64,000 nt of DNA from Paraphysomonas bandaiensis. Taxonomy: Eukaryota > Protista > Chrysophyceae. The notes under the pieces are model-generated. The model had not been told where the DNA came from, did no database searches, and saw only the letters and a list, made by a program, of their open reading frames with translations. Shown here piece after piece: positions 1 to 64,000 of the stretch. Position numbers and translations under genes: made by a program. The stretch spans positions 124,001-188,000 of the forward strand of contig CBFFRP010000380.1 in NCBI GenBank assembly GCA_965644295.1, in the 5' to 3' direction. Every line of letters begins with the position of its first letter. Positions within the stretch are counted from its first letter, which is position 1.

Positions 1-393
1 CTTCTGTCTAGCTGCCTCCTCTGCCTCAGCCTTCTGTCTAGCTGCCTCCTCTGCCTCAGCCTTCTGTCTAGCTGCCTCCTCTGCCTCAGCCTTCTGTCTA
101 GCTGCCTCCTCAGCCTTCTGTCTAGCTGCCTCCTCAGCCTCAGCCTTCTGTCTAGCTGCTTCCTCAGCCTCAGCCTTCTGTCTAGCTGCCTCCTCTGCCT
201 CAGCTTTCTGTCTAGCTACCTCCTCTGCCTCAGCCTTCTGTCTAGCTGCCTCCTCTGCCTCAGCCTTCTGTCTAGCTGCCTCCTCTGCCGCAGCCTTCTG
301 TCTAGCTGCCTCCTCAGCCTTCTGTCTAGCTGCCTCCTCAGCCGCAGCCTTCTGTCTAGCTGCCTCCTCAGCCGCAGCCTTCTGTCTAGCTAC
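1..393 (-). repeat. Coding tandem repeat, ~30 bp unit with 24 bp variants (CTTCTGTCTAGCTGCCTCCTCTGCCTCAGC)
   Basis: About 13 imperfect copies visible directly, encoding AEAEEAARQK / AAAEEAARQK / AEEAARQK. Confidence 0.95.
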
Positions 394-639
394 TTCGTTA
401 TTCTGAGTGGTCTCTTGCTGAGCTGATGCAGTGACTGTTTTTGTTAATTGTGTTTCTAAATTTTGTCCAGTAGAAGTTTTTGTATCAGTACGATCCGCAT
501 ATGTGACTTGCAAGTTAACTGCATCGGAATCAACATGCTGGTAGCTAGTAGCAGTAGGTGATGTGTGATCTCCATTCTCTACTAGTGGGGCTTCATCTGA
601 TGCATTACTTGAGTTCTCAGAACTAAAACAACATCCCAT
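1..639 (-). CDS. Putative N-myristoylated/palmitoylated protein with a charged (AEAEEAARQK)n helical repeat; 3' end runs off the window
   Basis: Open frame from ATG at 639: MGCCFSSENSSNASDEAPLVENG...NNEVARQKAAAEEAARQK... with no stop before base 1. MGCC is a dual-acylation motif. Absent from the ORF track because it is truncated. Confidence 0.75.
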   Translation of the reverse strand, partial: MGCCFSSENSSNASDEAPLVENGDHTSPTATSYQHVDSDAVNLQVTYADRTDTKTSTGQNLETQLTKTVTASAQQETTQNNEVARQKAAAEEAARQKAAAEEAARQKAEEAARQKAAAEEAARQKAEAEEAARQKAEAEEVARQKAEAEEAARQKAEAEEAARQKAEAEEAARQKAEEAARQKAEAEEAARQKAEAEEAARQKAEAEEAARQK

Positions 640-1180
640 ATTTTAATGTATATGATAATAAATCTTCTATTAATGATTGGAGTTTATTTATGGATTGAAT
701 GTCTATTTATGTGTGTATTGTTGTATGGTGATTGTTTATGATATGAGGATGAGGCTACATGCTGCTATCTCTGCACTCAACCCCACATATTGAGACATGT
801 ACTTTAGTACATATCTTTCTATACTATATAGAGTACAGCAGTACATAGTTTTTCAGTACCTTCCTGTACACTGCTGTGTACATACACTCTGCATACCTAC
901 GTACCCATGTACATGTACTGCTGTACGTGGGTAGATTTGTCAAATAGTCCTAAATTCCTGAAAATCAAGTCATCAAATATCCGGATATCTGGCTCTACAG
1001 GTACCATATCTTTCCCTATATACTCGTACGTCTATGTAGTATGGAGTATAGTGTAGTGCTGTATATTCTTCAGGTCATTGTCCCTCTACATATACACATA
1101 CATACATACATGCATCCTCTCCTCCCCACTCTCACTGTATCATCATATCTCAGTCCTATCAGTCATTACATCCCATCCCT

Positions 1181-31470: not shown

Positions 31471-33054
31471 TTAGGTCTGGTAAACTCGCTGACTTAACGG
31501 CCTCGCAAGGTCTGAAAGGGGCCCGTGGGTCGCCGCAGTAGCATTATTTACACACGAAGGCTTTGTCCGTACAGCGTCTACAGCTTTGGATACTATATTT
31601 ACAACGGCGTCTACATCAATGACTGTCCCTGAGGATGTACTTGTTCCGTCCTCGGCCTGGTACCGATAGTAGTGCATACCATAGTGTCGAGCTAAGTTTC
31701 CAAATCCCCTAATCGTGTAGAAACCTTGAGATGTGTCAGGAAAAAGTTCCACAAGTGCACAGCAATTCGGTTCACCGACAGCAGCGTGGAACATATTAGC
31801 CGTTCCAGCACCGTGCATTGTCAGAAGCACACCCGCACTGTGTGAAAGAGCGACTTGCTCTTTGAACGGCAGTCTCGCAAAACTTTGAACAGTCAGCCGC
31901 ACACCTTTGATGCGCTTTAGTGCAGTAACTAACGGATCAAGGTTGGCAATAACACGAGCACTGTTTGAGCTACCTTTACGGTGATTAATTTCCCTAGTCT
32001 CCAGGACCACATGCACCTCATCAATAGGGGGAGGCGGAAGAGAGTCTTGGCCATATCGATCCCGCCACATCTCTCGGAGATGCAAGGAAAATGACTGATA
32101 CAACGGTGAAGGGCCTCGAAAGGAACACGGATTGTCGTTGGACCAGTCCGCCCAGAACCATGGATATCCAGGGAAATATTGAAAGTATAGCTCTGAGAAG
32201 CAAACTTTCTTATCTCCATAGTCTTTCCCCTTTGCTACCTCGTTAAACCAGCTCTCAAAATATGCAGAAAAGGGTCCGTGTTCGTCCGGGCGGCCAGGAA
32301 TCATCAGCCGGTGGGGCGTGCCCCCTCCTGGTCCTCCAGCTCTTATCCCATCCATATTTATCAGTAGGGAATCTCGCCCCAATCGACCAGTCAAAACCAG
32401 CATACTCCAGACCATTATAACGTCATTCATGTAATGGCTTAGGTTAAAGCAGTCGTCGTTAGATAGAACGAAAGTTGGTCGCGTCTCCCACACGTCACAC
32501 TCACCAAGTGCGGGTACGTGCTTGTATCCAGGTGCAGGGCTGACTGAAGTGCTTCTTGTACCATGACTCTGTACAAACCCGGATGCAAACTCTCTGTGGT
32601 CATTAAGAACACGAGAAAGTGCAAAATCAACTGTAGCATTCGTGAGTCTACATAAGGTATTCGCTTTGTTGCTCGTTATACACTCGATTCCATCAGTCGG
32701 TTGTGATCTCACTTTATAGCGTTGCTTTATCCAGTAATTGAAAAAATTCCAGCCATAGCGCTGATTACATGACATCACTTTGTTGAACTGTATCAGCTCC
32801 TCACAGTTGTTGATCGTCCACATATCTCGTAATTTCTTCGGCATTGGACCCCAACGCTTCCCTATAACAGTGCCATACTTCTTCATTGTTGCCATGCACC
32901 AGTCACGACCCACTTGTCCTTTGATTAACTCAACTGTGGAGTACTTTTCTCGTATAGAAGCATCACATTGAATATATTCTCTAGTGTTTGAGGCCACAGG
33001 CATCATACACATGAATAACACCACCACAAACACCTCTACTGCACAATACATCAT
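31471..33054 (-). CDS. Glycosyltransferase family 61 (EOGT/DUF563-like), secretory pathway
   Basis: Signal peptide, FNLSHYMND, LPFKEQVALSHSAGVLLTMHGAGTAN, LVELFP, FGNLARHYGMHY; intronless. Confidence 0.85.
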   Translation of the reverse strand: MMYCAVEVFVVVLFMCMMPVASNTREYIQCDASIREKYSTVELIKGQVGRDWCMATMKKYGTVIGKRWGPMPKKLRDMWTINNCEELIQFNKVMSCNQRYGWNFFNYWIKQRYKVRSQPTDGIECITSNKANTLCRLTNATVDFALSRVLNDHREFASGFVQSHGTRSTSVSPAPGYKHVPALGECDVWETRPTFVLSNDDCFNLSHYMNDVIMVWSMLVLTGRLGRDSLLINMDGIRAGGPGGGTPHRLMIPGRPDEHGPFSAYFESWFNEVAKGKDYGDKKVCFSELYFQYFPGYPWFWADWSNDNPCSFRGPSPLYQSFSLHLREMWRDRYGQDSLPPPPIDEVHVVLETREINHRKGSSNSARVIANLDPLVTALKRIKGVRLTVQSFARLPFKEQVALSHSAGVLLTMHGAGTANMFHAAVGEPNCCALVELFPDTSQGFYTIRGFGNLARHYGMHYYRYQAEDGTSTSSGTVIDVDAVVNIVSKAVDAVRTKPSCVNNATAATHGPLSDLARPLSQRVYQT

Positions 33055-33612
33055 ACTGAGCTATCAGATCTATACACAGGGACTCTCACAGATAATTGTT
33101 ACTTGTTAAACTTTCTTTAATATCATGGAAGCACTCCCATGAGCTGCAATATCCTTTAACGCACTCTTGGCTGCTCTGTGTATAGTGCTTGTTTATTAGT
33201 CACATCATTAAATAGCATATATTCTATACTAAAATGGGGGAATATGTCAAAAATGGGAGAAAAAGGCCGAATATTATGATTTTAGGATCTGAAAACAGGA
33301 GTATTTAGTACAGTAATAATAAAACTCTGTTCATACTATGCTGCACTACTGCACTAACTCAAGAGCTCATCCTGCTGTATGGTGGATCTCATACAGCAGA
33401 GTACATATGGCTAAAGTAAGTAAGTTATACGCTATGTACATGAAGGATTGTATATGTACATATTCAAATACGAATCTCTCTGTAGTGAATAAGGACCGCC
33501 ATAAGATCAGATGATGATATATATACCCATCCAGTGGACACAACTCATACATACACTTACTATTAATAACTTCAGATAATTCCTATCCAGTGTGTTAATC
33601 TCTGCGGCTTGT

Positions 33613-36600
33613 ATGAAGGAGATGATGACAAGAGATCCCTTCCAGTCCAGTTCGTCTTCTAATAAGAGTATGGAACCTAAAAAGAGGGGAAGACCACCTA
33701 AATCTTTTTCACATTCATCTGATCAGATTCCTCCTCCATTGAGAAAGAAAACACGTCAGATATCTGGGTCGATGTTAACTGGTGCTGCTAGTCCGAGTAG
33801 AGGACAAGTAATGGGGAAGACGGGATACACAGATGTAAATAAGGTATATATATATACATAGTTACATATATATAGTTACATATATACATTCATATACCTG
33901 TACATATATGTAGACATGTACACATACATATATATAGACATATTCCTGTAGATACGTTACGAGATGTAGAGAAGTAGAAACTAATAAATGTGGTGAGCTG
34001 CTGGGCCTGATGTTCACTGTCATTCAGAGACTACTTGCAGAAGGGTGGCAAATAGATACTGCATGTAGTAAGTGGATAGGAAAGAAAGTCCGACGGTTTT
34101 TCGTTGGTCATGGAGCTGTGGACGGTACTGTTGTAGGATACATGCCCTCCGACTCTGCTGAAGGTATATACACCGTCTTTTCATGTAACTGTTGTCTTTT
34201 CTTGGTACACATACTATTTTTCCTATTGACATAAGTACTTATTCTCTGCCTAGGTCATCCTCTGTGGCACGTATCTCACGAGGACGAAGACAGTGAGGAT
34301 ATGAGCGAAAGCGAGTTGGAGCTTTGTAGGCATGTCGTGTATATTTTGTGTGTTATAGTTTAACAGCGATTCTCATGTTTGCAGTAAGCTGTATGATTCA
34401 GAAGCAAAGTGCTTGAGCAATGAAGAATTTCAACGACTACATGAAAAATGCGCGACTATTTCTGATAGATATCCTGACAGCAAGGTGTTGGCACACTTTG
34501 CTCTGCGCACAGGGGTTACATGTTCAAGAGTGGGCTCGTCATACCAGGCAGATTTGAGCAATCTATCTCCACATGAGGCATTACCCGACAATTCAGGTTC
34601 AGTGATGACAGTGTGCACAGAGAGTGATAGCTATGAGCCTGTACTTCATAAGGAGTACCTATCTCGAGCGCACGTGGCGGCTCTATTACCAGGCATGGTG
34701 GTGCAGGCGCGGCTCCCTTCTCCTCATTCTTTGCTTATTCCAGTTTGTCTTGTCGCTCATCTGGCAAATGGGAAAGTTGTGGTTTTTGACGGCTCCTCAC
34801 ATCACACCTTGCTCATGACCGAGTGTGTACCGCCGAGTGTCGACGAGCTTGACATAGACGGGGCGTGGATGAATTCCGGTGGACGCATGGATGATGCGGT
34901 GTTACGAGTGCAACGGACCGCTCAGCTGATACTATCTTTGCAGCTGTCTGGATCAATTCTAGAGCTACTCCTTTTTGCTTGGAAGGAACACAAGAGTGAT
35001 CTGGAGACGGGTTGGAGGACTCACCTGAGAAATGTCCTTTCTTTCAAACAATTACTTGGTTTTTACCACACCCTTTGCCCAGTCCTACTTAGAGATAAAA
35101 GTAAACAGGGATGGGAAAATCTTAGGCGTGTGTATCAATGTGCTGATGCAATACGTGGCACTGAAATATCACCGCCTTCATCAGTCAGTAACAACATGAT
35201 CATGGAAGGGGACTGGGGGTCGGAGGCCGAGGATGAGGACGTTTTCTACCCAAGTGGCCCTAGTTTTATTCTAGAAAACCCTTCCCACGCTTCTTTTCCA
35301 TCGTCCCCACGTTCAGTTAAGCGTAGAGGCAGGGGCAGGCGAGAAGTCGAGCAGATCGACCTCGAAACAGGAAAAGTCATCGCGATATACCCTTCCGGAG
35401 TTGCTGCGGCCGCAAAGATTGGCGGCTCTCAATCGTCTGTCTCTGCCTGCTGTAGGGGTAAAACCAAACAGTACGGTGGGTACAGATGGCGGTTTGTGGA
35501 ACGGGATTGTGAGGATCTTTCATCGGTAGGTCATATCAGTACTCAAGATACGACGCATAGCCTCTTTGCTAGTACCAGCGATTACGACTCCTGGCAGTCT
35601 GATAATTCTGATGATGACTTTCGGGAAGCGAGTAAAGTGCATGTGCGAGAGCAACATATCGTGAAGTATGACACTGAAACTGGAGAAACAATAGCAGTTT
35701 ACGCAACTGTAGTGGCTGCTGCTCTCGCGCTGGGTGAAATGCGGACATGTAAGTCCGAAACAGCTATTTCTTCTTGCTGTCGAGGCACACGAAGGGCCTA
35801 TGCTGGATATGGGTGGCGATTCGCAAAAAAACATGAACTTATCCATAATGGTCTGTCTACTCACGGACAGCGAGCTGATGCAGATAGCAACAGTTCGTCT
35901 CGTAGTGACGTTGAGAGTAATGCAGTCAGCGATGATGACGTTGAGAAAAAGTTGGATGTCGGTGGTATGACGCGTCCGAGAAAGCAAGGCCGTAAGGTGG
36001 TTCAGTGCGACTATGACACGGGAGCGGTGATTGCAGTCTATCCAAGTGGAAAGGCGGCTGCAAATGCAGTAGGGGGAAGACAGTCTTCAATATCCAGCTG
36101 CTGTACAGGTAGATTTAAGTCTCATCTTGGGTTCAGGTGGAGGTTTGTATCAATCACTGATAACAATTCGTCAGAGGCCACTTTGCTGCATGAACACGCC
36201 AAGAAAAGACCTGGTCGTCCCTCTCGAGGAAGAAAGAAAAAAGCTGCTAGACAGATGCCTGCTAAGCGTATGAAAGCGAGTAATCTCCGTGGTTCCATTA
36301 GTAGCAGGAAGGGACGTGCGGTTGAGCAATATGACTTGGAAACGGGTGAAACTGTTGCAATACACCCATCTGGGGTTGCAGCCGCTAATGCAATTAATGG
36401 CACGCAGTCTGTTATATCCGCCTGCTGTAGGGGAGTAAAAGAGGAGCACCGTGGGTTTGGGTGGAGATTTGCAGATGGGAATTCTGACCTGGCAGATGTG
36501 AGTATGGCTGATGACGACGGTTACAATGAAGCAAATAGTGAAGAATTTACAGTTTTAAAGGATGATAAATGCGAGCTTCATGTTGATGCGGCCAATCGAC

Positions 36601-36851
36601 AAGGCGTTCAAGTTCATGACTCCAGCGACGTGCATCAGAGTTCTAATTATAGTACAGGTAGTGGTAGTAGTATGAAGAGTAGCGTCGACTTGGGGACAGG
36701 TGCAAGAAATGAAGCAGACGTTATTAGTGACGAAAATTTCGAAAACTACAGTTCGAAAGGTAGCCTAGATAGTGATGGCTCAGAAGACTGTAGTATTATT
36801 AGCGGCCTTAGTAGTAGTGACGAAGAGAATGATGAATCGTTGTATATCTAA
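33613..36851 (+). CDS. Nuclear DNA/chromatin-binding protein: AT-hook, Tudor-like domain, ELM2-like motif and four NUMOD1/IENR1-like DNA-binding repeats
   Basis: KKRGRPPK; WIGKKVRRFFVGHGAVDGTVVGY..|HPLWHVSHEDEDSEDM; RVGSSYQADL; four repeats of V-x-Q-x-D-x-E-T-G-x-x-I-A-x-Y-P-S-x-x-A-A-A...ISxCCxG...GxxWRF at ~35340-35498, 35655-35822, 35991-36146 and 36315-36470. Confidence 0.8.
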
Positions 36852-53892: not shown

Positions 53893-54809
53893 ATGAGGAG
53901 AAGAAATGTCGGTGTTGGTGCAATAAAGAGACGACAAGATGAAGCAAAGGCATTCTCTGCAGTGGGTAAGACAATGGAAGCACAGCATATCAGTCATGTA
54001 AAAAACATGATCGATAGCTTTAAAACATCTCTATTGGTGAGGTTACTCGATGAGACTGATCCAGTATGTATGAATGATGTATTGATATACAGGAATTTGC
54101 AAGTAAACACAGAGATCGTATCAATGCGGATCCAGAGTTCAGACATCAGTTTCATGTGATGTGTACCAGTACTGGAGTTGATCCTCTTGCATCGAATAAG
54201 GGATTCTGGTCTGACCTGTTGGGGGTTGGGGACTTTTACTATGAACTTGGTGTTCAGATTATTCAGATATGCTTACAGACTCGTTCTACTAATGGTGGTA
54301 TTATATCGATTAAAGAGCTATTTGATACTATCCGCGCTTCCCCGGGTCGAAGTAAACAGCATTTATCAAAAGAAGATATCAAGCGCGCTATTGAACGTAT
54401 ATCTATTCTAGGAAATGGTCTCAAGATGATCGAGGTGCATCTGCATGTTATTTGTTTGGTTTGAGTTGCCTTATGACTTTGTTTATACTAGGTATCCGGC
54501 CGAACCATGGTAGTGTCAACACCTATGGAGCTCAATAATGACCACGAGCATGTATTTACAATAGCCAGTGAGCAAGGATACGTATCTGAAGAAATGTTAG
54601 TCAGTCAGTATGGGTGGTCGCGGGAGCGGTTCTACGGTGTCATAAACGTTCTAGCTCAGGAAGGTGTGGTGTGGATAGATGCCCATGGTAGAAAAGGTAA
54701 ATGCATGTCTTTGAATCAATTTCTGTAGTCATTTTGGTTGTCGTATACAGCGCAGCATAGATATTACTTCCCGAGTATATGGAAAGATTCATGTGCAGAC
54801 CCATTCTAG
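53893..54809 (+). CDS. SNF8: ESCRT-II subunit VPS22/SNF8 (EAP30), 4 exons
   Basis: MRRRNVGVGAI, EFASKHRDRINADPEFRHQFHVMC..GVDPLASNKGFWSDLLGVGDFYYELGVQI, STPMELNNDH, EGVVWID, YYFPS. Confidence 0.96.
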
Positions 54810-55371
54810 ACAGTTAGGTGCATGTGTATAGAATGTGCTTCGGTGGAATTCAATTATTTATGTATCCCCATCATACTGTTGCAATGTACTACTATTATTA
54901 TTATAAAATTATGCGACACTGTGTAGTAATTAGTAATAGAGAAGAAGTAGTAGTAATGAGAAATAAGAACTGCACATAAGAAATAATTGCTGTTACGCAC
55001 TTCTCAGCTTCTCAGAACTTGACAGGTAGATAGCAGGTAGCAGCGAGTGCTTGTCTAAAAGTCGCGCATGTAAATGTTGGCTGAATATTACTGGATTAAT
55101 ACATTGCAGAAGTAATATTTAAGTCAGAAAACTGCCAAAATTTGGAAGAAAAAAATCCAACCAGATGTTCATCCTGTGCAGTATGTGTACAATGTAAAGC
55201 GCTTGGTATAATTACAACTATTTAAGGAAGACTATATCCGAGAATAAATCTAAATTTCAGTGTGGCAAAGTTTAAAGTTTTCGTAGTAAAGGTGATGTCG
55301 AGAGTGGCATATGAACAACAAGGGAAGCATATGCGCCACCACGAAACCGGAATATCGGAATATATAAACAC

Positions 55372-56611
55372 TTATTGAGTTTTGGTATCAGCGTAGTACT
55401 CAACTTCCGATGGTGTGATAAGTCTAATTGACCAACCAAAAATTTTTTCGAAGAGGCAGAGAGATGGGCCAAAGAGATTACGTGTCATAGACAGGAGTCT
55501 ATTGTCTTCGAACACATAAGGTTCATGGATATCTGTGTTATTTAAATTCCTTATTTTGATTCCTTTTTTCGATACGTTTCGCCTTTTTGACCGGGCCAGT
55601 TCGGTATCATTCTGAACAAATGTAAAGTTGTCTGAGTCCACGGGGCTTGACACTTTGATCATTGTGTTCACGGACGTCCCGAGTAGCACATCTACAGGGA
55701 AATCGTAATGTGGAAGCTGTAGAAAGTCTTCTACTCGACGCATTGTGATGTTCGGGAAGTGCTCCAAATCATAGTGGTCCAGCACAAGTAGATTATTACG
55801 AAATGCATTTTTCCAATGCAGCAGCACTTCACCATACATGAACCCATTCATCGGGAACAGAGAAGTCACGTGTGCAATGGAGCGCTCAGAAAATCTCTTC
55901 CTAGAAACTGGGGTATCTTTACTTAACATTTCCCGCCAGTTTGCCATTACTTTGGGAAATCTCTCCTTTCTCTCCGATCTCTTTGCCATGGTCAGCCAAG
56001 AACCCATTCTCTGCCACGGGTCACGCACCAAAAATATGACTTTAGTGGAGGGGCTATAATGCAGCAAGTTTGCCACGGCGCCCAAATCTCGGTACGCACC
56101 TGATGTACAGTCAATCATCAACTTTCCAGTATCATTCTCATGATTGTCCAGAATTCGTCGTTCAAATGATTGCAACGACAACTTTTCTGGTATTTTTGCA
56201 AACAAATTCATCTCCTTGTGGCGATATGGCTTTATGTCAGGGTGAGCCACCAGCTTGCTGTGATATATAATTGTACTGAATTAGTGCATGGTATCGTTCA
56301 TACCTGCAAAATGATGTTGTCCCACATTTAGAAAACCCACCAACAAACACATAAGGAAAGCACCAGTTACATACTTTCCCTTTTGTTCCTACACAGTTCC
56401 ACTTATAGCACGGCATCTTGGAATCAGTCGACAGTGTAGCCACGGAAAACATAGAAGAAAAGAGACGTGCAAGCGTACTATTTCCATTGAACTGTGGGGG
56501 ATCAACTTTTGGGACCATTTTCCTATTTAATGTGGGATGCTTTGGGCATATATGAGTGAGAATATACATGTGGATAAGTGACATAAATAGAACAGTTCTA
56601 AATAGAATCAT
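55372..56611 (-). CDS. Membrane-anchored sulfotransferase (heparan-sulfate 3-O-/N-sulfotransferase-like P-loop family), 2 exons
   Basis: 5'-PSB motif FVGGFSKCGTTSF, HPDI...KEMNLF, 3'-PB motif KVIFLVRDPWQRMGSW, MRRVEDFLQLP, N-terminal TM anchor. Confidence 0.85.
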
Positions 56612-56950
56612 TGTGATGGTTTCTTACGGTAATTAGTTTGAAGATATGATATAAGATGGGCACATACTTACACAACACATGCATAAGCAAGCTGTCCACA
56701 TGCATCCAGCGGTGATACTCACTGCTGCATGTTTTTACTATAATGAATTTTTATGTACAGGAATTTTTGTACTCCAGCAGGAATATTAAAATAGTAGGAT
56801 TTTAAGAAAAAACAGTCTAATATTAAGAATATATTTCCCAAAATCCTGAAATCAGATAATATTTATAGTATGAAACTCCTCTATAGAAAACAAGGATTGA
56901 ATAAATTCAGGATTTTAGGACATATGTACATATTGTGTCGTAGATTATCA

Positions 56951-57484
56951 TGAGCAAGGATTCGTATCTGAAGAAATGTTAGTCAGTCAGTATGGGTGGT
57001 CGCGGGAGCGGTTCTATGGTTGTCATAAACGTTCTAGTTCAGGAAGGTGTGGTGTGGATAGATGCCCATGGTAGAAAAGGTAAATGCATGTCTTTGAATC
57101 GATTTCTGTAATCGTATACAGCGCAGCATAGATATTACTTCCCGAGTATATGGAAAGATTCTTGTGCAGACCCATTCTAGGCAGTTAGGTGTGGTGTGAT
57201 ATATACGTCGTACTATCGATCGGCAACTACATCTATGCTGTGTTTGGTTATTTTAGTTTCGAGTTTCGATTATAACTCAATGTTGTGCATGTGTATAGAA
57301 TGTGCTTTGGTGGAATTCAATTATTTGTATAGCCCCATCATACTGTTGCAATGTACTACTATTATAAAATTATGCGTTATGCGACACTGTGTAGTAATAG
57401 AGAAGAAGTAGTAGTAATGAGAAATAAGGACTGCACATAAAACGATTGCTGTTACGCACTTCTCAGCTTCTCAGAACTTGACAG
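56951..57484 (+). pseudogene. Duplicated 3' fragment of SNF8 (partial exon, intron, last exon, 3' UTR)
   Basis: Near-identical to 54569-55025. It has a +1 frameshift (CTATGGTTGTC vs CTACGGTGTC), a shortened intron and about 100 extra bases in the UTR, and lacks the 5' part of the gene. Confidence 0.9.
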
Positions 57485-57534
57485 CATACACACTACGCAA
57501 AAAGTATATATTGTCTATTATCTAAATTACTTTA

Positions 57535-59511
57535 TTATAATGCAACCTTCTTCAGTCTATAGTCCAGAAACATAGCAACTACAAACCCAACTACGCATAT
57601 AAATGATGACACAAAAAATATTGATTGAAAACATTTGGAACCTATACATTGATTGCCACTGTTCACATTAGATGGGTGAAAAATTTCCACTAGCCCATAT
57701 GCAATAACATAGGAGCCAACGGCACCTGATAAGCCAAAGAAACCATTATTTGTGGCGACGTGAGTTACGCCGTACATGTCCACCGCATACGCAGCAGCCA
57801 AAACTTTAATAGCCCCATACAAGGCGCCAATACAAAATACTAATATGTAAAAAACTGCCTCAACAGGTATATACAGCGCAAAGCAGAAGTTCACCACTGC
57901 CACAAATAAATTTCCGCATCCAAGCATTTGAACCAACGACAATGTTCCTTTGAAGTATTCCGAGACGTGCCCTATTGATATTCTTCCCAGCGACGAAGAT
58001 ATATTGAGTATAAAAACCAATACTGGGGCGCTAGCGGACACACGTTGGGAAACAGATATAGGTTCGATCAAGTTGATCACTAAAAGGGTGCTCCCATAAA
58101 TGGACGAAAGAATCAGAAACACCACCCAGCATTGATATGTTTGCAACATCTCTACCAACTGCAGAAGCGATTAAAGAAATCCGCAATATATATATCATAA
58201 CGCACGAGTTGTTACCCATGTAGAATGTGTTTGAGGGATATTATCAATTAAATACATTGTATGCATACATCACAAATCAGATATGTATGTCGTAAATGAG
58301 ACGCACCGTAAGGTCTCTTTCGCCTGCCAAGCAGGGATTTTGGCCACTTGGGACATTGCAAGTCTCAGAATTAGCTGACTTATTCTGTGGTTCATTCGAA
58401 ACATCATCGAAAGGCTTAGTGGTAGTGGCGCAGTGTTGGCTATCATTTCCTGTCTCTATTTGAGGTAGTAGCGGCTGTGAAAAACCTTGCTGTGCTTTTT
58501 TAATTCCTTTCTGTCCACATGTAGTACCACTTTTATAGTTGCTATTCTCGTCATTATATCCTATTGACGAGGACTCCTTGTGAATATTACTTTGCCCTTG
58601 GGAACATATCCCTTCCATTCGAATACTGTTACGCTGGTCATCTTCACCTACAATTGACTGGCGGAAACTTCGAGTGTATGCAGAGAAATAAAACGAATAC
58701 GGCAAAAGAGTTATGGTGAACATTGCTGCAATGACCGCGACTCCAACAGTTATCATGGCAGACCTGTTCTTAACTGTTAGAGAGAGCATAACAGCAACTG
58801 TAATGACTGATATGAGAAAATAGAAGTGGGAAAAATAAGGAGAAAGTGATGTCAGTATTCCATTCCTTTGTTCGTAAGCGAAAGATTTCATATCAGTAGG
58901 GAGTTGGTTAATGAATACGCTTGCGCATAACGCACACATCGATATAAAAATAGACGCAAATAGCACAAATCCGGTGTCACGATCATCGTATATAGTTGCT
59001 GCGACTGCTGATAATAGTGCACCGGCAATACCATAGTACGCTTTCGCAAGACTGGCGATCCTTCCCCGTGATTCTGATGGAAACGAATTTAAACTACAGC
59101 TCAGAGTACCTTGTGATATCAACGATCCCCCGACTAGAGCTATAAATATAAACAAACACAAAACTCCAACTGAAGTAGGCATAGCATCATCAACTGATAA
59201 CCACATACAAAATAAACCAATAAATATTAATATAGCAGCAGATTGTATGGCAATACGAGGACCATATGTGTTCACAATATAACCAGTGAATATCCCTGAA
59301 TATGATCCAAGATTACCAAATGATCCAATAAGTGCAATTTCACTAGCAGAATAATTTAATTTATCTTGAAGGACTTTAGAAAATAAACCAAACGATGTCG
59401 CTAGTCCTGTTAGTGTATGCGGTTAGACATCAGTGTGGTTATGTTATGAGGTTTACCAGTAACACCCGCTACAAATAAACATGATGTAAGTATACTCCAT
59501 CTTTCAGACAT
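57535..59511 (-). CDS. MFS transporter, Nodulin-like/NFD4/Mch1 family, 3 exons
   Basis: LQDKLNYSASEIALIGSFGNLG, FPSESRGRIASLAKAYYGIAGA, large central loop, SSLGRISIGHVSE, DMYGVTHVATNNG, CIGSKCFQSIF. Confidence 0.88.
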
Positions 59512-59932
59512 ATCCTTATATGATTAACAGTCTTTATTGTTAAGTTAATTACTGATCATTTGATATGATAGATGAGGAGTGATCTCCCTTAATATACATA
59601 TACATGTACTGCACACTGCACACTGCACACTGCTGCTGTCTGTATCTATAGTATACTCTACAGTACATGTATCTATAATCTATACAGAAATAAGGATATG
59701 ATTTGAAAATCTACCGATATTTCCTCCTAATAATATGAAATTATACTGTTATTGTTACAAAATGCCTGATTTCTATACCCTAAAGTACATATACACATAA
59801 ACTCTACCTTAGACAGTGTATGTATGTATATGTACAGGCCGCAGTCACTCACGTCTATGACACCATACCATAACTAACTCTACCACCTCAATACTATACA
59901 TATACATTCATAGAGTACTTCATCACTATATA

Positions 59933-62900
59933 ATGGGCTTAGCACGCAAAGCCACTATATTTGCAGTGGCATGGTTCTTCATATACGTGACTGTGTACTT
60001 TGTATTTATAGCTCCTAGTTTTCTACCCAAATCTACTAAATACACAGCAGAGTTGCAAATATCTCCACCAAAAATTACAAAACAACAATCAATTAAAGAG
60101 ATTATTACTTTAACTGATCCATTTATACCTGATGCTTGTCCAGATACTGATGTAACTGTTGTGAATGTTGGTGTGATTGTTGTATGTCATGATGAATCTC
60201 CCTCATCCATCATACAAACCGTAAGAGTACACTGAATACAAAAGATAATATTGATTGATGTTATTTTATAGGTGAAGTCTATTTTGGAAAATTCTGGAGC
60301 ATTATCTCCGCAGATAGTAATTGTGGATGATCATTCCACCGTACATGTCAGGTAAGCAGAAGCTTCTAGCTCCAGCATCAGTAAAACATGGTATGTACAG
60401 GGATTGGAGTGAGTGGGGACGTATGGATAAGAATGTGGTAGTAGTTCGTACTTCCCGTCATATAGGGATATCAGAATCAAGAAATGCTGGGCTGAAGACT
60501 CTCGCTGGCAAGGTAGATAGGGCACTGTTATGTATTCGTTGGTTCCATGCCCTTCTTCAATTATATGATCGTGTAGATGAGACGTAGTGTTTATATTACT
60601 TTACAGACTGATGTGGTTGTATTTCTTGATCCTGGAGCTATTGTGAGTAAGGATTGGCTCAGCCCTCTACTGGACACCCTGCAAAGACACCCAAGAGCTG
60701 GTGAGTGTTGTGATGTACCATTTGATTTATGAATTCGTTTACCTGTTTTTTCTAAGTATTCGATTGTTTTATTGTTTTCCGATTTTGTTGTGCTCAATAC
60801 TAGTTGCGTTCACGTAATGTACTAATTGTGTGGTTGTAGTTGTGTACCCTGTAATAGACATCCTTGAAGATCAGTCCGGTACTGTATTGCAAGCTGGAAA
60901 TGTGCTTGCAACATTAGACTGGTCAATGAAGCTTAAATGGGAGGTATTGCGATATACGCTGAATTATTGGCTTTAAATTGAATACTTTGATATAACTTTC
61001 ACTGTCTTGCTGCAATAGGATCTTGACAGTGTAGGGGGTGTCATCAATGACCGTTATCCGCTTCTTCCCGCACATCCCTCGGCATCAGATGAACTTATAT
61101 CGCCCGCTGCGCCCACCGTATTTGCAGTAAATAGCAAGTTTTTGGATGGTGTGTATATCTGATAACTATGGGATTGGTCTGTGATTGGTCGTCGTGAACG
61201 CAGATATCGGAGGACTGCCGACCTCGTCCTTGCTCTCCGCTTGGGGCCCTGATAACATTGAACTTTCACTCCGGTGTGATAAAACTTGTAATTCTATTAT
61301 ATGCTATTGTTGATTTTGTCATATGCTTTATATTGTGTTACTTGTGTGTTGAAACGCAAACTTACCCTGAATTAAAATTGGCAGTGAGTGTTTGTTGTTA
61401 ATGGATATATACATAGTTCTAGCCTCTGTCTTACACTGCCACTAATCAAACTTGTGTTCTCATGTTACAGGGTGTGGTTGTGTACTGATGCCCTTATTAT
61501 ACGCCAGCCGTGTTCCCGTGTTGCCGTTAGACGGTGTATGATCCGGAGTGAGTTACCGGATGGATCACTTGGTGAACATCTTGGTATTTGTCCGGACAGT
61601 GGAACTTTGATGGGCTACACACAGTTTGAGGTACGTATTGCATTTATTGGACGTTAATATCTTCGTTACAGCAATGAGATACGTATATTTTATTTGGGTA
61701 GAATAATTTGTGTATGCGTTTGTTTTCAGGGAGACCGAGATGCTATGTCTATCGCGGAGCTTTGGCTTGGAAAAGACTACAGGCGGCTGGTGTGGCAGCA
61801 GCGCATGCTGAAGCGGTTCCCGTACGAGGTGACACCCAGAGATGACGTTAGACATCCAGACTATATCAGCAAAGCACCTGGAATAGATGTGAATAAGTGT
61901 AATGACTTCAGCTGGTATTTGCAAAAGGTATGTACATGTGTGGTACTTAGGGTTTGTCAATATTCTTTCAGGTGTATCCTGGCCTCTCTGCAGATAGAAT
62001 AGTTGTGAAAGAGCAGTTTGAGAAAAGTGATACACCGGATAACATGAAGCGAGTGTGTAAAAATTCTTCTTTACGTCTGCCTCTTGATGTGTGCTGTAGA
62101 TGCTACTTCCTCTCATCGAGCAATACCGAAAATCTTCTCCGCTGTTGAGAGCTGAAGAAAGTGGCTCGCGAAAGGTCTTTCTAAATTGCGTTGATCGATT
62201 TTTTCGTAAGTTGCTTTGTTAATACAGTTGGTTAAAGCTCCTAGAGTTGTTCCAACCGCACTTGAACTGGTGAGTACTTTGTACGCTCTGACTGTCGAGA
62301 ATTATATGGGCGTATATTTTATTTTTTAACGTGCAGCAAATGGAGGAGGCTGCCAAGAAAGAAGAGAAGCTAAAAGAAAAGATTCGTGATGAGCAACTGT
62401 GTATGAACGTCGATGACAGTGTATGTTATCAGTTTTAGTATTATCGTAGTTACCAGTAACCCATGTCAATCAGAAATGCGAAGATGCAAGAGTCAAAGGA
62501 GAGTGTACTTCAAACCTTGGTATGTTCCTCGCTGAACTCTGAATTAAACTTCTGTGATATTGTTTGTAAAATACATCAGCGAAAACACTCTTTGGTTGCC
62601 CGAAGGCATGTGGATTCTGTTCGGATGATAACAAACTTTGCACCGATTTCTTCCTTGGGAAATGTACGATATCCGTTGTCTATATTTCTCTTATGGAGCA
62701 GTCATATCTGTCTTAGGCCCAAAGTATGCCTCTGAAGGACAGTGCACGGACCCGGAGTCTAAAGAATGGATGGAAATTAATTGTCGCCGATCGTGTAAAT
62801 TCTGCAGGTAGATATACACCACTCTTATATCTGCATCGATTCTATTTTTACGTGAATTTGATGTACTGCCATTGTAAAATCTATACTTTTGAGCTATGCT

Positions 62901-64000
62901 TCGCCAATACTTATTTTTGTGATGTATGTCAGACGCCCGGACGATCCTCCTATCAACAACGTGAATTCAAAGGAGAAAAACCCCGATGCTAATTCGGTAG
63001 ATTCTGTTGCCGATAAACCGAGCAAGGAAGATGAAGCATCGGAGCTCTTGAAGGTATATCAACGTATGTCACAAAACGTTACGTCATGTATCGGCATTCA
63101 GAATGCGGTGAGGATTAATCCCTACACAGCTCAAGAGCTATGGGAAAGTTCGAAGCTTGAAGATGACATTGGTACGTCTTTTTGTGATATTGGTATTCAT
63201 TTTTGCATGAGGCCGTCGCATTGTTCTATAAATATCTTGTGATTTCCTTCTAGATGTATCTAATGTACGTTGATTGACTGTTTTGGCAGGGAGCGAACCG
63301 TGTGCATTGGCGAACACGAATCATGCAAAGCTGTTGGACTATATCCATGTTCATCCTGCGCCGAAGGGTGGACACTTCGGGTTAGTAGCTGATATGTTTT
63401 CTTAGCTGTGTTAAATTTCGATTTTGATTCAGGGAAGGAAGTGTAGCAGATAGAACTACCAATCTAGGAAATCGTATATTTTGTGCGACATACACCATGG
63501 AATCCAAGCACGCTTCCAATGTTGCGGTAGGCCCTTTGAGCGCAGAATTTTCGGTCGTGTTATGTAATGGGCGTATTGTTCTCTCATGTAGACTCTGCGC
63601 AACACGTGGGGTAAACGCTGTGATGGGTGGGTTGCATTCAGTACTGTTACTGATCCAACTATACCAGGTGATTTCATCTGCTTTGCTGTGGTTCATATTA
63701 TCATGAGGATTCTTAGCATCATTTAATGCTGTGCAATTGCTTAATGCTATAGCTTATGCTGTATATTTGTATTAGCTATCCAGATCCATCATGAGGGACC
63801 AGAGAGCTATAATAACATGTGGCAGAAGGTGATTATTATATAAATGTTATTCTGAGTTGTAATCCTGCGCAGTCCCGGAGCATATGGAAGTACATTGCTC
63901 AGCATTATATGGACGAGTTTGACTGGTTTTTGATTGGCGGTGATGATATGTACTACATTATTGAGAACCTGAGGGAGTATTTAAGGTCAGAAATTTTTGT
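59933..64000 (+). CDS. Type II Golgi fusion glycosyltransferase: GALNT-like (GT27, degenerate) + 2x ShKT + core-1 beta-1,3-galactosyltransferase-like (GT31); runs off the window
   Basis: TM anchor; VIVVCHDE...IVIVDDHS, GISESRNAG, VVVFLDPG, WLSPLL, VVYPVIDI, WGPDNIELSLR|VWLC, PCSRVAV, CNDFSWYLQK|VYP; two six-Cys ShKT units; RIFCATYT...TWGKRCDG...EGPESYNNMWQK|SRSIWKYI...FDWFLIGGDDMY. Confidence 0.82.

Follow-up and report, generated by a model that had tools for sequence, protein, structure and literature searches.

Can one protist gene encode two enzymes that build the same sugar chain, and do both halves of such a protein still work? GALNT and C1GalT1 are the animal enzyme pair that starts mucin-type sugar chains. 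In Paraphysomonas bandaiensis, a chrysophyte that is likely marine, GALNT-like and C1GalT1-like domains are joined in one protein, a real fusion encoded at 59933..64000 on the forward strand of a 64,000-nucleotide stretch of contig CBFFRP010000380.1 (positions 124,001 to 188,000; here the window). Its start ATG lies at 59933, and the gene extends beyond the window end. By-eye splicing in a preliminary description had given a single polypeptide in one continuous frame with GT-AG introns, and spliced transcript contigs from four studies bear this out. They define 23 exons and 22 distinct, complete GT-AG introns of 44-197 nt (15 joints seen in one set and 11 in a second), seven of them first derived from contig coordinates and later directly confirmed in record X12; a 23rd intron begins at 63986. 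The spliced product has 785 codons and no stops, compared to 43 and 70 stops in the other two cDNA frames and 58-79 in the unspliced frames. A single 3030-nt contig in X11 covers the whole fusion and extends roughly 640 nt beyond the window's last exon, with the cDNA and the record's coordinates agreeing at 8 of 8 checked positions; X9, X10, and X8 cover the stretch partially. Judging from relatives, the complete protein would be about 945 aa long. Comparison of strains yielded 23 differences, the exonic ones being 5 synonymous and 5 nonsynonymous, too few for a selection test.

The protein begins with a single signal anchor at about aa 8-30 (59954..60022; all features lie on the forward strand), where hydrophobic 19-residue windows start at aa 6-14. 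No other such segment appeared in a hydropathy scan of the window protein, in agreement with the earlier remark that a second anchor is missing, and the topology would be that of a type II membrane protein. A GT-A domain derived from GT27 (ppGalNAc-T) spans aa 74-420 (60152..61995; family GT27 profile, 316 bits) and is followed by a helical linker at aa 421-499 (61996..62399; helices at 398-474 in the model of the relative P0005). Two ShKT units come next, at aa 500-535 (62400..62620, three exons) and aa 542-579 (62639..62805), and then a low-complexity spacer at aa 580-645 (62806..63294), predicted to be mostly disordered (pLDDT <50 at 589-633 in the P0005 model). The C1GalT1-like GT31 part occupies aa 646-785 (63295..63985; family GT31 profile, 180 bits); of the full GT31 region the window includes just the initial ~140 residues, the xED base and C-terminal His falling beyond it. 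In the Pfam, PDB, and folding analyses, P0005 (35% identical to the window protein over 839 columns) and P0004 (51%) stood in for the spliced protein; the full-length P0005 model has a pTM of 0.48 and fixes no domain arrangement.

The N-terminal domain was assigned to GT27 in the preliminary description, and its nearest kin in both sequence and fold are indeed the GALNTs: exon 4 matches Pfam PF00535 (E 7.8e-4), and P0005 matches GALNTs in the PDB (E 9e-40) and by Foldseek (E 1e-25). A GT60 identity was rejected, as PF11397 had no match in the fused GT27-type members scanned and matched only P0086. Exon 9 returned no relatives among proteins or metagenome contigs and exon 8 no PDB match, both exons being short and divergent. 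The ricin lectin domain is missing, as had been noticed: ShKT and GT31 follow the GT27 domain instead, and no Pfam match to ricin was found in the full-length relatives scanned (P0005 and the named chrysophyte members).

Is this domain still an enzyme? The DxH metal motif is absent and reads D168-P-G170 (60628..60636), and Val312 (61526..61528) stands where GalNAc-T2 has its C-terminal metal-binding His, His359. The DxH codons have the same letters in X12, X10, X8, and X5, and the Val312 codon is invariant in X5, X11, X13, X12, and X8. The preliminary description was silent on the loss of both histidines. In GalNAc-T2 the DxH His and the C-terminal His bind Mn2+ (excerpt of PMC13071866); because both are missing here, the GT27 domain of this copy is likely a catalytically dead pseudoenzyme, and the proposed two-step activity, GalNAc transfer plus extension, is not supported for this copy. 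The donor motif equivalent to Trp331-Gly332-x-Glu334 reads W283-G-P-D286, keeping Trp and Gly with Glu changed to Asp, and the copy retains VDD, the Arg208 equivalent, Trp, and an acidic residue at Glu334. Loss of metal ligands with retained activity is described for some GT-A families (GT14 and bacterial GT6; excerpt of PMC7185993).

The C-terminal domain is nearest to C1GalT1, consistent with the GT31 class named earlier: the last window exon matches Drosophila C1GalT1 (7q4i) at E 1.1e-5, and P0005 matches C1GalT1 in the PDB at E 3e-38. Next in the PDB ranking come chondroitin synthase and B3GLCT. C1GalT1 itself is an obligate homodimer. The equivalent of Asp181-x-Asp183 is G771-D772-D773 in the window copy, with Asp181 changed to Gly; the G-G-D-D motif of the GT31 clade lies at 63936-63947. 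Gly occupies this position in 51/51 fused members, while Asp does in 10/10 animal-type domains. Tyr218 is Phe in all 51 fused members, and the Arg152 and Tyr213 equivalents also differ from C1GalT1 (R152Y, Y213P). According to an excerpt of PMC9065035, our source for residue roles, the metal of DmC1GalT1 has three ligands, Asp181 among them, and Y218A is inactive. Since the Asp181 and Tyr218 equivalents are missing, GalNAc and core 1 are unproven as products, and the four changes together mean that donor and acceptor may differ. Mapped onto the relatives, the equivalents of E150, K158, D182, D183, S220, E254, and D255 are each kept in 51/51 fused members, W300 in 50/51, and Y304, H324, and Y325 in 48/51. 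This set includes the xED catalytic base (Asp255) and the C-terminal His (His324), both of which the window copy would, from its relatives, also carry. The acceptor contacts S220 and Y304 are rarer in other non-animal GT31 domains (51/88 and 50/88); this comparison of fused with other domains is phylogenetically non-independent. Mean identity is 60-66% for GT31 versus 33-47% for GT27. Atlas gave generic glycosyltransferase leads only, the best at 0.89 and 0.91.

Both ShKT units read as first written, with six Cys each, and have the domain's usual size of about 36 residues. Unit 1 is recognized by its Cys positions and a local family profile (28 bits), its exon fragment reaching only E 0.24 in Pfam; unit 2 matches Pfam PF01549 at E 1.6e-7, and P0005 has two such stretches. 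The suggestion that they replace the lectin is unlikely and was rejected: Pfam ShK adjoins the same GT31 type in P0127 and P0130, which lack GT27, it occurs in the GT60-GT31 fusion P0086, and diatom-type fusions are without it. ShKT thus appears to travel with GT31.

How widespread is the fusion? The GT27-ShKT-GT31 architecture, put forward early on as something to look for in other protists, belongs to a family of orthologues; those that carry names are chrysophytes (Mallomonas, Chromulina, Dinobryon, Pedospumella, and Chlorochromonas); a decayed form without ShKT is present in the diatoms Thalassiosira oceanica and Pseudo-nitzschia multiseries. Local profiles found both domains in 83/228 fetched proteins, a count that takes in fragments and near-identical cluster members, and 10/80 fetched loci carry both in a single uninterrupted ORF. 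Our literature searches returned no description of this fusion family, and no neighbor in the window matches ORFs of the 80 fetched loci (E 1e-5), so no synteny was seen. The fusion is conserved, and the view that it signals O-HexNAc glycosylation of proteins in protists other than apicomplexans, and outside animals, is supported for this group.

Within the family, both metal-binding histidines are kept in 18/41 aligned members, 14 of which also have the Trp331 equivalent; 22 are degenerate, and 1 is truncated at the His sites. The nearest GT27-bearing relative, P0091 (39% identical to the window copy), is also degenerate. The intact-His relatives have Lys and Pro at what we take to be positions Arg208 and Gly308 of GalNAc-T2. 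Residues at these positions are tied to donor specificity (excerpt of PMC13071866). The degenerate domains retain about 350 residues without frame breaks, with identity down to 33%, and the whole GT27 fold is retained from chrysophytes to centric and pennate diatoms. Pfam finds nothing for the GT27 region in two diatom members; a profile of the diatom group, made with no GALNT sequences, reaches GALNTs in the PDB at E 1e-11, and the fold of the diatom-group model resembles that of GALNTs at E 1e-13. P0086 has two GT60 domains, each with D-A-H, followed by ShKT and a GT31 domain with the same residue set. Among related GT31 proteins, many gave no GT27 match, some of these being fragments. Chrysophyte and diatom fusions do not form one exclusive clade in the GT31 tree, so a single origin is not demonstrated. 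A Dollo count gives 12 losses of the His pair; as it includes the truncated P0039 and the tree has a weak backbone and long branches, we claim only that the pair was lost several times. Fisher tests disregard relatedness, and their values are not taken here as probabilities. The GT27 tree holds 10 ricin-type domains, one of them named (Anopheles) and none apicomplexan, and cannot test lateral transfer.

Compared to known systems, the first half is homologous over its full length to the GT-A domain of GT27 GALNTs (human GalNAc-T2/T4/T10/T12 and Toxoplasma GalNAc-T3; P0005 E 9e-40 to 1e-31) and shares their signal anchor and, in the intact members, DxH and the C-terminal His. It differs in being joined to ShKT and GT31 rather than to a ricin lectin, in the loss of both histidines in the window copy, and in having Lys and Pro in place of Arg208 and Gly308, also where the histidines are intact. 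Likewise, Drosophila C1GalT1 is the best PDB match of the C-terminal domain (7q4i, E 1e-37; TM 0.75 by target for a diatom model), and fused relatives keep its xED base, C-terminal His, and S220, W300, Y304, and Y325 equivalents, whereas the family has G-D-D for D181-D182-D183 plus R152Y, Y213P, and Y218F and places GT31 after GT27 and the two ShKT units. A stripped GT-A domain beside an active GT31 recalls Cosmc (C1GALT1C1) and CHPF, which are, however, separate polypeptides and paralogues of their partners (excerpts of PMC9065035, PMC13389171, and PMC7185993). In the fusion the dead domain shares its partner's chain and derives from the family of the upstream enzyme, and any chaperone role is putative. 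CHSY (GT31+GT7) and Skp1 PgtA (GT2+GT74) also combine in a single chain two GT domains acting in successive steps, but from other families and in another order, and neither links peptide priming to extension. GT60 alpha-GlcNAc-transferases (PF11397) are lectin-less peptide HexNAc transferases of diatoms, oomycetes, and algae (PMC8724618), and in P0086 two such domains join ShKT and the same GT31 type; the N-terminal domain of the fused GT27-type members is GT27-like instead.

The explanation we somewhat favor is an anchored protein, with a likely inactive GALNT-derived domain, two ShKT units, and a likely active C1GalT1-like domain, descended from a two-step ochrophyte ancestor. Since the first half is likely inactive, sugar transfer likely falls to the second half: secreted proteins carrying alpha-HexNAc on Ser/Thr would there receive a further sugar, probably beta-1,3-galactose, presumably in the Golgi. 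The ancestral protein would have transferred HexNAc to peptide and then extended it, and intact-His members may still do both; for those such as Mallomonas P0007, GalNAc-then-Gal activity is plausible, with the chances slightly against it. The first half would have repeatedly lost catalysis yet been retained, possibly for folding, scaffolding, or acceptor binding, with another enzyme, for which GT60 is a candidate, priming the protein where the GT27 site died. A related and more tentative version is an inherited one-chain enzyme with both halves active in many chrysophytes; in diatoms and several chrysophyte lines, the GALNT half would be a Cosmc-like module, a built-in folding or acceptor-presenting part, with GT60 priming and the G-G-D-D GT31 domain acting as a general extender of alpha-HexNAc-Ser/Thr.

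Several rival readings were weighed against this. That two adjacent genes were joined by mis-splicing or an assembly artefact was rejected and is scarcely credible: contigs are not single molecules, and that of X13 is split in two near 62226, but contigs of X11 and X16 bridge the GT27/GT31 join, where cDNA was called for from the start, with no stop and no frame change, the window protein has no second signal anchor, and relatives encode both domains in single ORFs. It is also quite improbable that the protein alone makes Tn antigen and extends it to core 1, with ShKT as a glycopeptide-binding lectin. GALNTs and C1GalT1 are the best PDB matches, 18/41 relatives keep both histidines, and in the window copy the Arg208 and Trp331 equivalents persist, as does an acidic one for Glu334; against this, both histidines are missing in all strains compared, intact relatives carry Lys and Pro at the donor-specificity positions (excerpt of PMC13071866), Tyr218 is Phe throughout the fused members, and ShK occurs with GT31 alone and in the GT60 fusion.

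Might the likeness to the animal pair reflect ancestry only, the protein making a different glycan from other donors or on a nonprotein acceptor? Acceptors under that reading would be a cell-surface polysaccharide, scale matrix, or glycolipid. The clade-wide G-G-D-D, R152Y, and Y218F changes and the many activities within GT31 are in its favor, with chondroitin synthase and B3GLCT next in the PDB and Atlas features putting chondroitin-synthase clusters at or near the top (leads only). Against it, 48-51 of 51 fused members retain the peptide contacts W300, Y304, and Y325 together with S220, which contacts the acetamide group, and both partners seen, GT27 and GT60, are peptide HexNAc transferase families (PMC8724618; excerpt of PMC7185993); we regard it as doubtful. 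A dead GT27 domain with no role of its own, decaying baggage serving only as a long stem for GT31, would fit the 33% identity among degenerate members, the missing Pfam matches in two diatoms, and the GT31 proteins without GT27. Decay of that kind sits poorly with a whole fold of ~350 residues kept without frame breaks from chrysophytes to both diatom groups and with a window copy still 39% identical to degenerate P0091, making this reading unlikely as well.

In chrysophytes the family supplies GT27 domains whose metal ligands are intact, and it offers, from intact to dead, a natural series of how a glycosyltransferase becomes a pseudoenzyme. It also singles out one gene whose disruption in a diatom should bring the O-glycan pathway to light, and an intact member, which would prime and extend O-glycans in a single chain, may be useful for glycoengineering. 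If the inherited initiate-and-extend reading is true, GT27 would be old in SAR protists, which would weaken the case for animal-to-apicomplexan lateral transfer of GT27.

Public sequencing-run contigs aligned to 56000-64000 of the window support a single polypeptide for the fusion gene at 59933-64000 (+). One spliced contig from run X11 (3,030 nt) spans 59901 to 63988 and continues further, and a 1,735-nt contig from X16, a polyA marine metatranscriptome, links the end of the GT27 region, via both ShKT units, to GT31; X13 contributes a pair of contigs meeting near 62226, and X5 covers the whole stretch unspliced. The X11, X12, and X13 contigs are without introns that X5, X8, X9, and X10 retain, and we can only guess that these three runs are RNA. 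The four spliced runs belong to four separate studies, and the organism's sequences are present in marine samples. Fifteen splice joints are shown directly in the first contig alignment; the other 7 were solved from record coordinates and then seen directly in X12. From the ATG at 59933, removing 22 introns leaves 785 codons with no stop, in agreement with X11 coordinates at all 8 positions checked. The 30-letter loose contig end beyond 63988, read by eye, keeps the frame open without a stop, and ~640 nt of the X11 contig remain, room enough for the ~160 further residues found there in relatives. The preliminary description of one continuous polypeptide without a second signal anchor is thus upheld by these contigs, by single-ORF relatives, and by the one hydrophobic anchor in the spliced protein.

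The last in-window exon matches Drosophila C1GalT1 (E = 1.1e-5) and retrieved six proteins, including a full-length relative, P0005 (956 aa; 35% identity with the spliced protein across 839 columns). Residues ~60-400 of P0005 match human, fly, and Toxoplasma GALNTs (E = 9e-40 to 1e-31), residues 696-948 match C1GalT1 (E = 3e-38), and two ShK stretches are present, with no match to ricin or PF11397 in a scan of this protein. In its structural model (pLDDT 83, pTM 0.48) the domains are confident, the linker forms a long helix, and the spacer is disordered; Foldseek returned GALNTs throughout the top matches listed. These matches confirm the GT27-like and C1GALT1-like GT31 domains first proposed by eye, and the lack of a ricin lectin domain holds in P0005.

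A P0005 search gave 61 proteins at E<=1e-20 of 7,993 scored candidates, and a full HMMER search contributed the best 150 of 7,385. By local profiles, both domains are present in 83 of the 228 collected proteins, a count that takes in fragments and cluster members. The fused members with names are chrysophytes, coming from Mallomonas annulata, Chromulina nebulosa, Dinobryon divergens, Pedospumella encystans, Chlorochromonas danica, and a Chrysophyte H1 assembly. On this basis the organism of the window is itself likely a chrysophyte. In 10 of 80 metagenome loci, both domains lie within one uninterrupted ORF, evidence of fusion independent of splicing; an artefact is highly improbable. A distant group without ShKT and with a decayed N-terminal domain includes Thalassiosira oceanica and Pseudo-nitzschia multiseries (JGI code Psemu1). 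In diatom-type proteins (P0115/P0246, P0123, P0112, P0109, P0106, P0088, and P0101; 700-970 aa), several without a match in a Pfam scan, the N-terminal half carries no annotation and is a stripped GALNT fold. A profile built from 13 proteins of this group matches C1GalT1 (8.5e-42) and GALNTs (up to 1e-11) and aligns with the chrysophyte profile along both domains; its model gives GALNT (1e-13) and C1GalT1 (4e-13) fold matches. The GT27 tree places chrysophyte and diatom domains together and separates them from 10 domains of ricin type (support 0.98, with long branches); in the GT31 tree the two sets of fusions do not form one exclusive clade. One ancient fusion likely lies behind both forms.

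Divergent from the fusion gene and ~500 bp away lies a Nodulin-like/NFD4 MFS transporter gene (57535-59422, -; Pfam E = 7e-25), not found next to fusion relatives in the 80 metagenome loci. An imperfect direct repeat of ~460 bp (54569-55025 and 56951-57484; six blocks, 93-98% identical) flanks a sulfotransferase-like gene (55372-56623, -; Sulfotransfer_3, E = 3e-5). An 830-codon frame (34359-36851, +) carries several NUMOD1-like repeats (PF07453, E = 5e-12; PF22083, E = 4e-9) in an otherwise cellular-looking protein. A GT61 glycosyltransferase occupies a 529-codon uninterrupted frame (31471-33060, -; PF04577, E = 8e-10), and a frame that extends past the start of the window (1-642, -) has MGCC at its N-terminus and numerous repeats rich in Ala, Glu, Arg, and Lys.

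The metal ligands of GalNAc-T2 are Asp224, His226, and His359 (PMC13071866 and PMC6994419, available portions). This copy has D168-P-G170 at the DxH position and Val312 at the C-His position, with no difference at these codons among aligned strains, and P0091, its nearest GT27-bearing relative, is degenerate too. Both His are kept in 18 of 41 aligned proteins (14 of the 18 also keep the Trp331 equivalent) and not kept in 22, with one truncated at the site. Degenerate members (e.g., P0019; also P0017, P0023, and P0067) fall within supported clades beside intact ones, so the loss occurred several times. Judged from its residues, the GT27 half of this copy is likely catalytically dead; against this reading, it retains VDD, the Arg208 equivalent, Trp283, and Asp286, and some GT-A families are active without metal (PMC7185993, in part).

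The GT31 half is conserved but not a plain T-synthase. With residue roles of fly C1GalT1 (PMC9065035, available text) hand-mapped onto the alignment, the equivalents of E150, K158, D182, D183, S220, E254, and D255 are invariant in 51/51 fused members, and W300 (50/51), Y304, H324, and Y325 (48/51 each) are nearly so. All 51 differ from T-synthase by Asp181 to Gly, Arg152 to Tyr, and Tyr218 to Phe. In the fly enzyme, Tyr218 bonds GalNAc O4, and Y218A is inactive (same source). The retained acetamide and peptide contacts, together with the loss of Tyr218, point to an alpha-HexNAc-peptide acceptor that may be either C4 epimer; other sugars or acceptors are a less probable, though real, alternative. 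The preliminary description read the protein as two consecutive mucin-type enzymes joined, for the Tn antigen and then core 1. The joining of a GT27-derived domain to GT31 stands, but priming is probably dead here and T-synthase identity is altered; with both metal-binding His replaced here and Tyr218 changed in all 51 fused members, full Tn-to-core-1 activity in this copy is unlikely. We consider it equally unlikely that the GT27 domain is mere baggage.

Outside the window, P0086 (1,909 aa, single ORF; cluster of six including P0229-P0233) is a parallel primer-extender fusion: two GT60 (PF11397) domains, both D-A-H, precede ShKT and a G-G-D-D GT31 with the same residue set as GT27-fused members. 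Both known families of peptide HexNAc-transferase therefore have members fused to this GT31 type. In P0127 and P0130, ShK accompanies this GT31 type alone, which argues that ShK belongs with GT31 rather than replacing the lectin as proposed earlier.

According to the available text of PMC8724618, apicomplexans are the only protists with pp-GalNAc-Ts, and mucin-type O-glycans of the diatom, oomycete, and algal group are uncharacterised. The accessible parts of PMC7773692 mention no GT27, C1GALT, or T-synthase, and those of PMC3797821 no GT27. Among the open-literature matches listed, mostly abstracts, we found no description of this architecture or of GT27 in these algae; supplementary gene lists could name such proteins. 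The novelty has limits: existing JGI annotation calls some family members core 1 galactosyltransferase, and a paper on a dinoflagellate transcriptome (PMC5601461, in part) contains three mentions of polypeptide GalNAc-transferase. Both domains belong to known families.

The closest working analogies for this copy are two catalytically dead GT-A proteins that partner active GT31 enzymes, Cosmc and CHPF (PMC9065035, PMC13389171, and PMC7185993, available portions), and the two-domain enzymes CHSY and PgtA (PMC13389171 and PMC8724618, likewise). On balance, we favor a type II membrane protein of the Golgi whose GT31 domain would extend alpha-HexNAc-Ser/Thr, probably with beta-1,3-Gal, the GT27 domain in P. 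bandaiensis being a retained pseudoenzyme, while the ancestral protein and intact relatives would both prime and extend.
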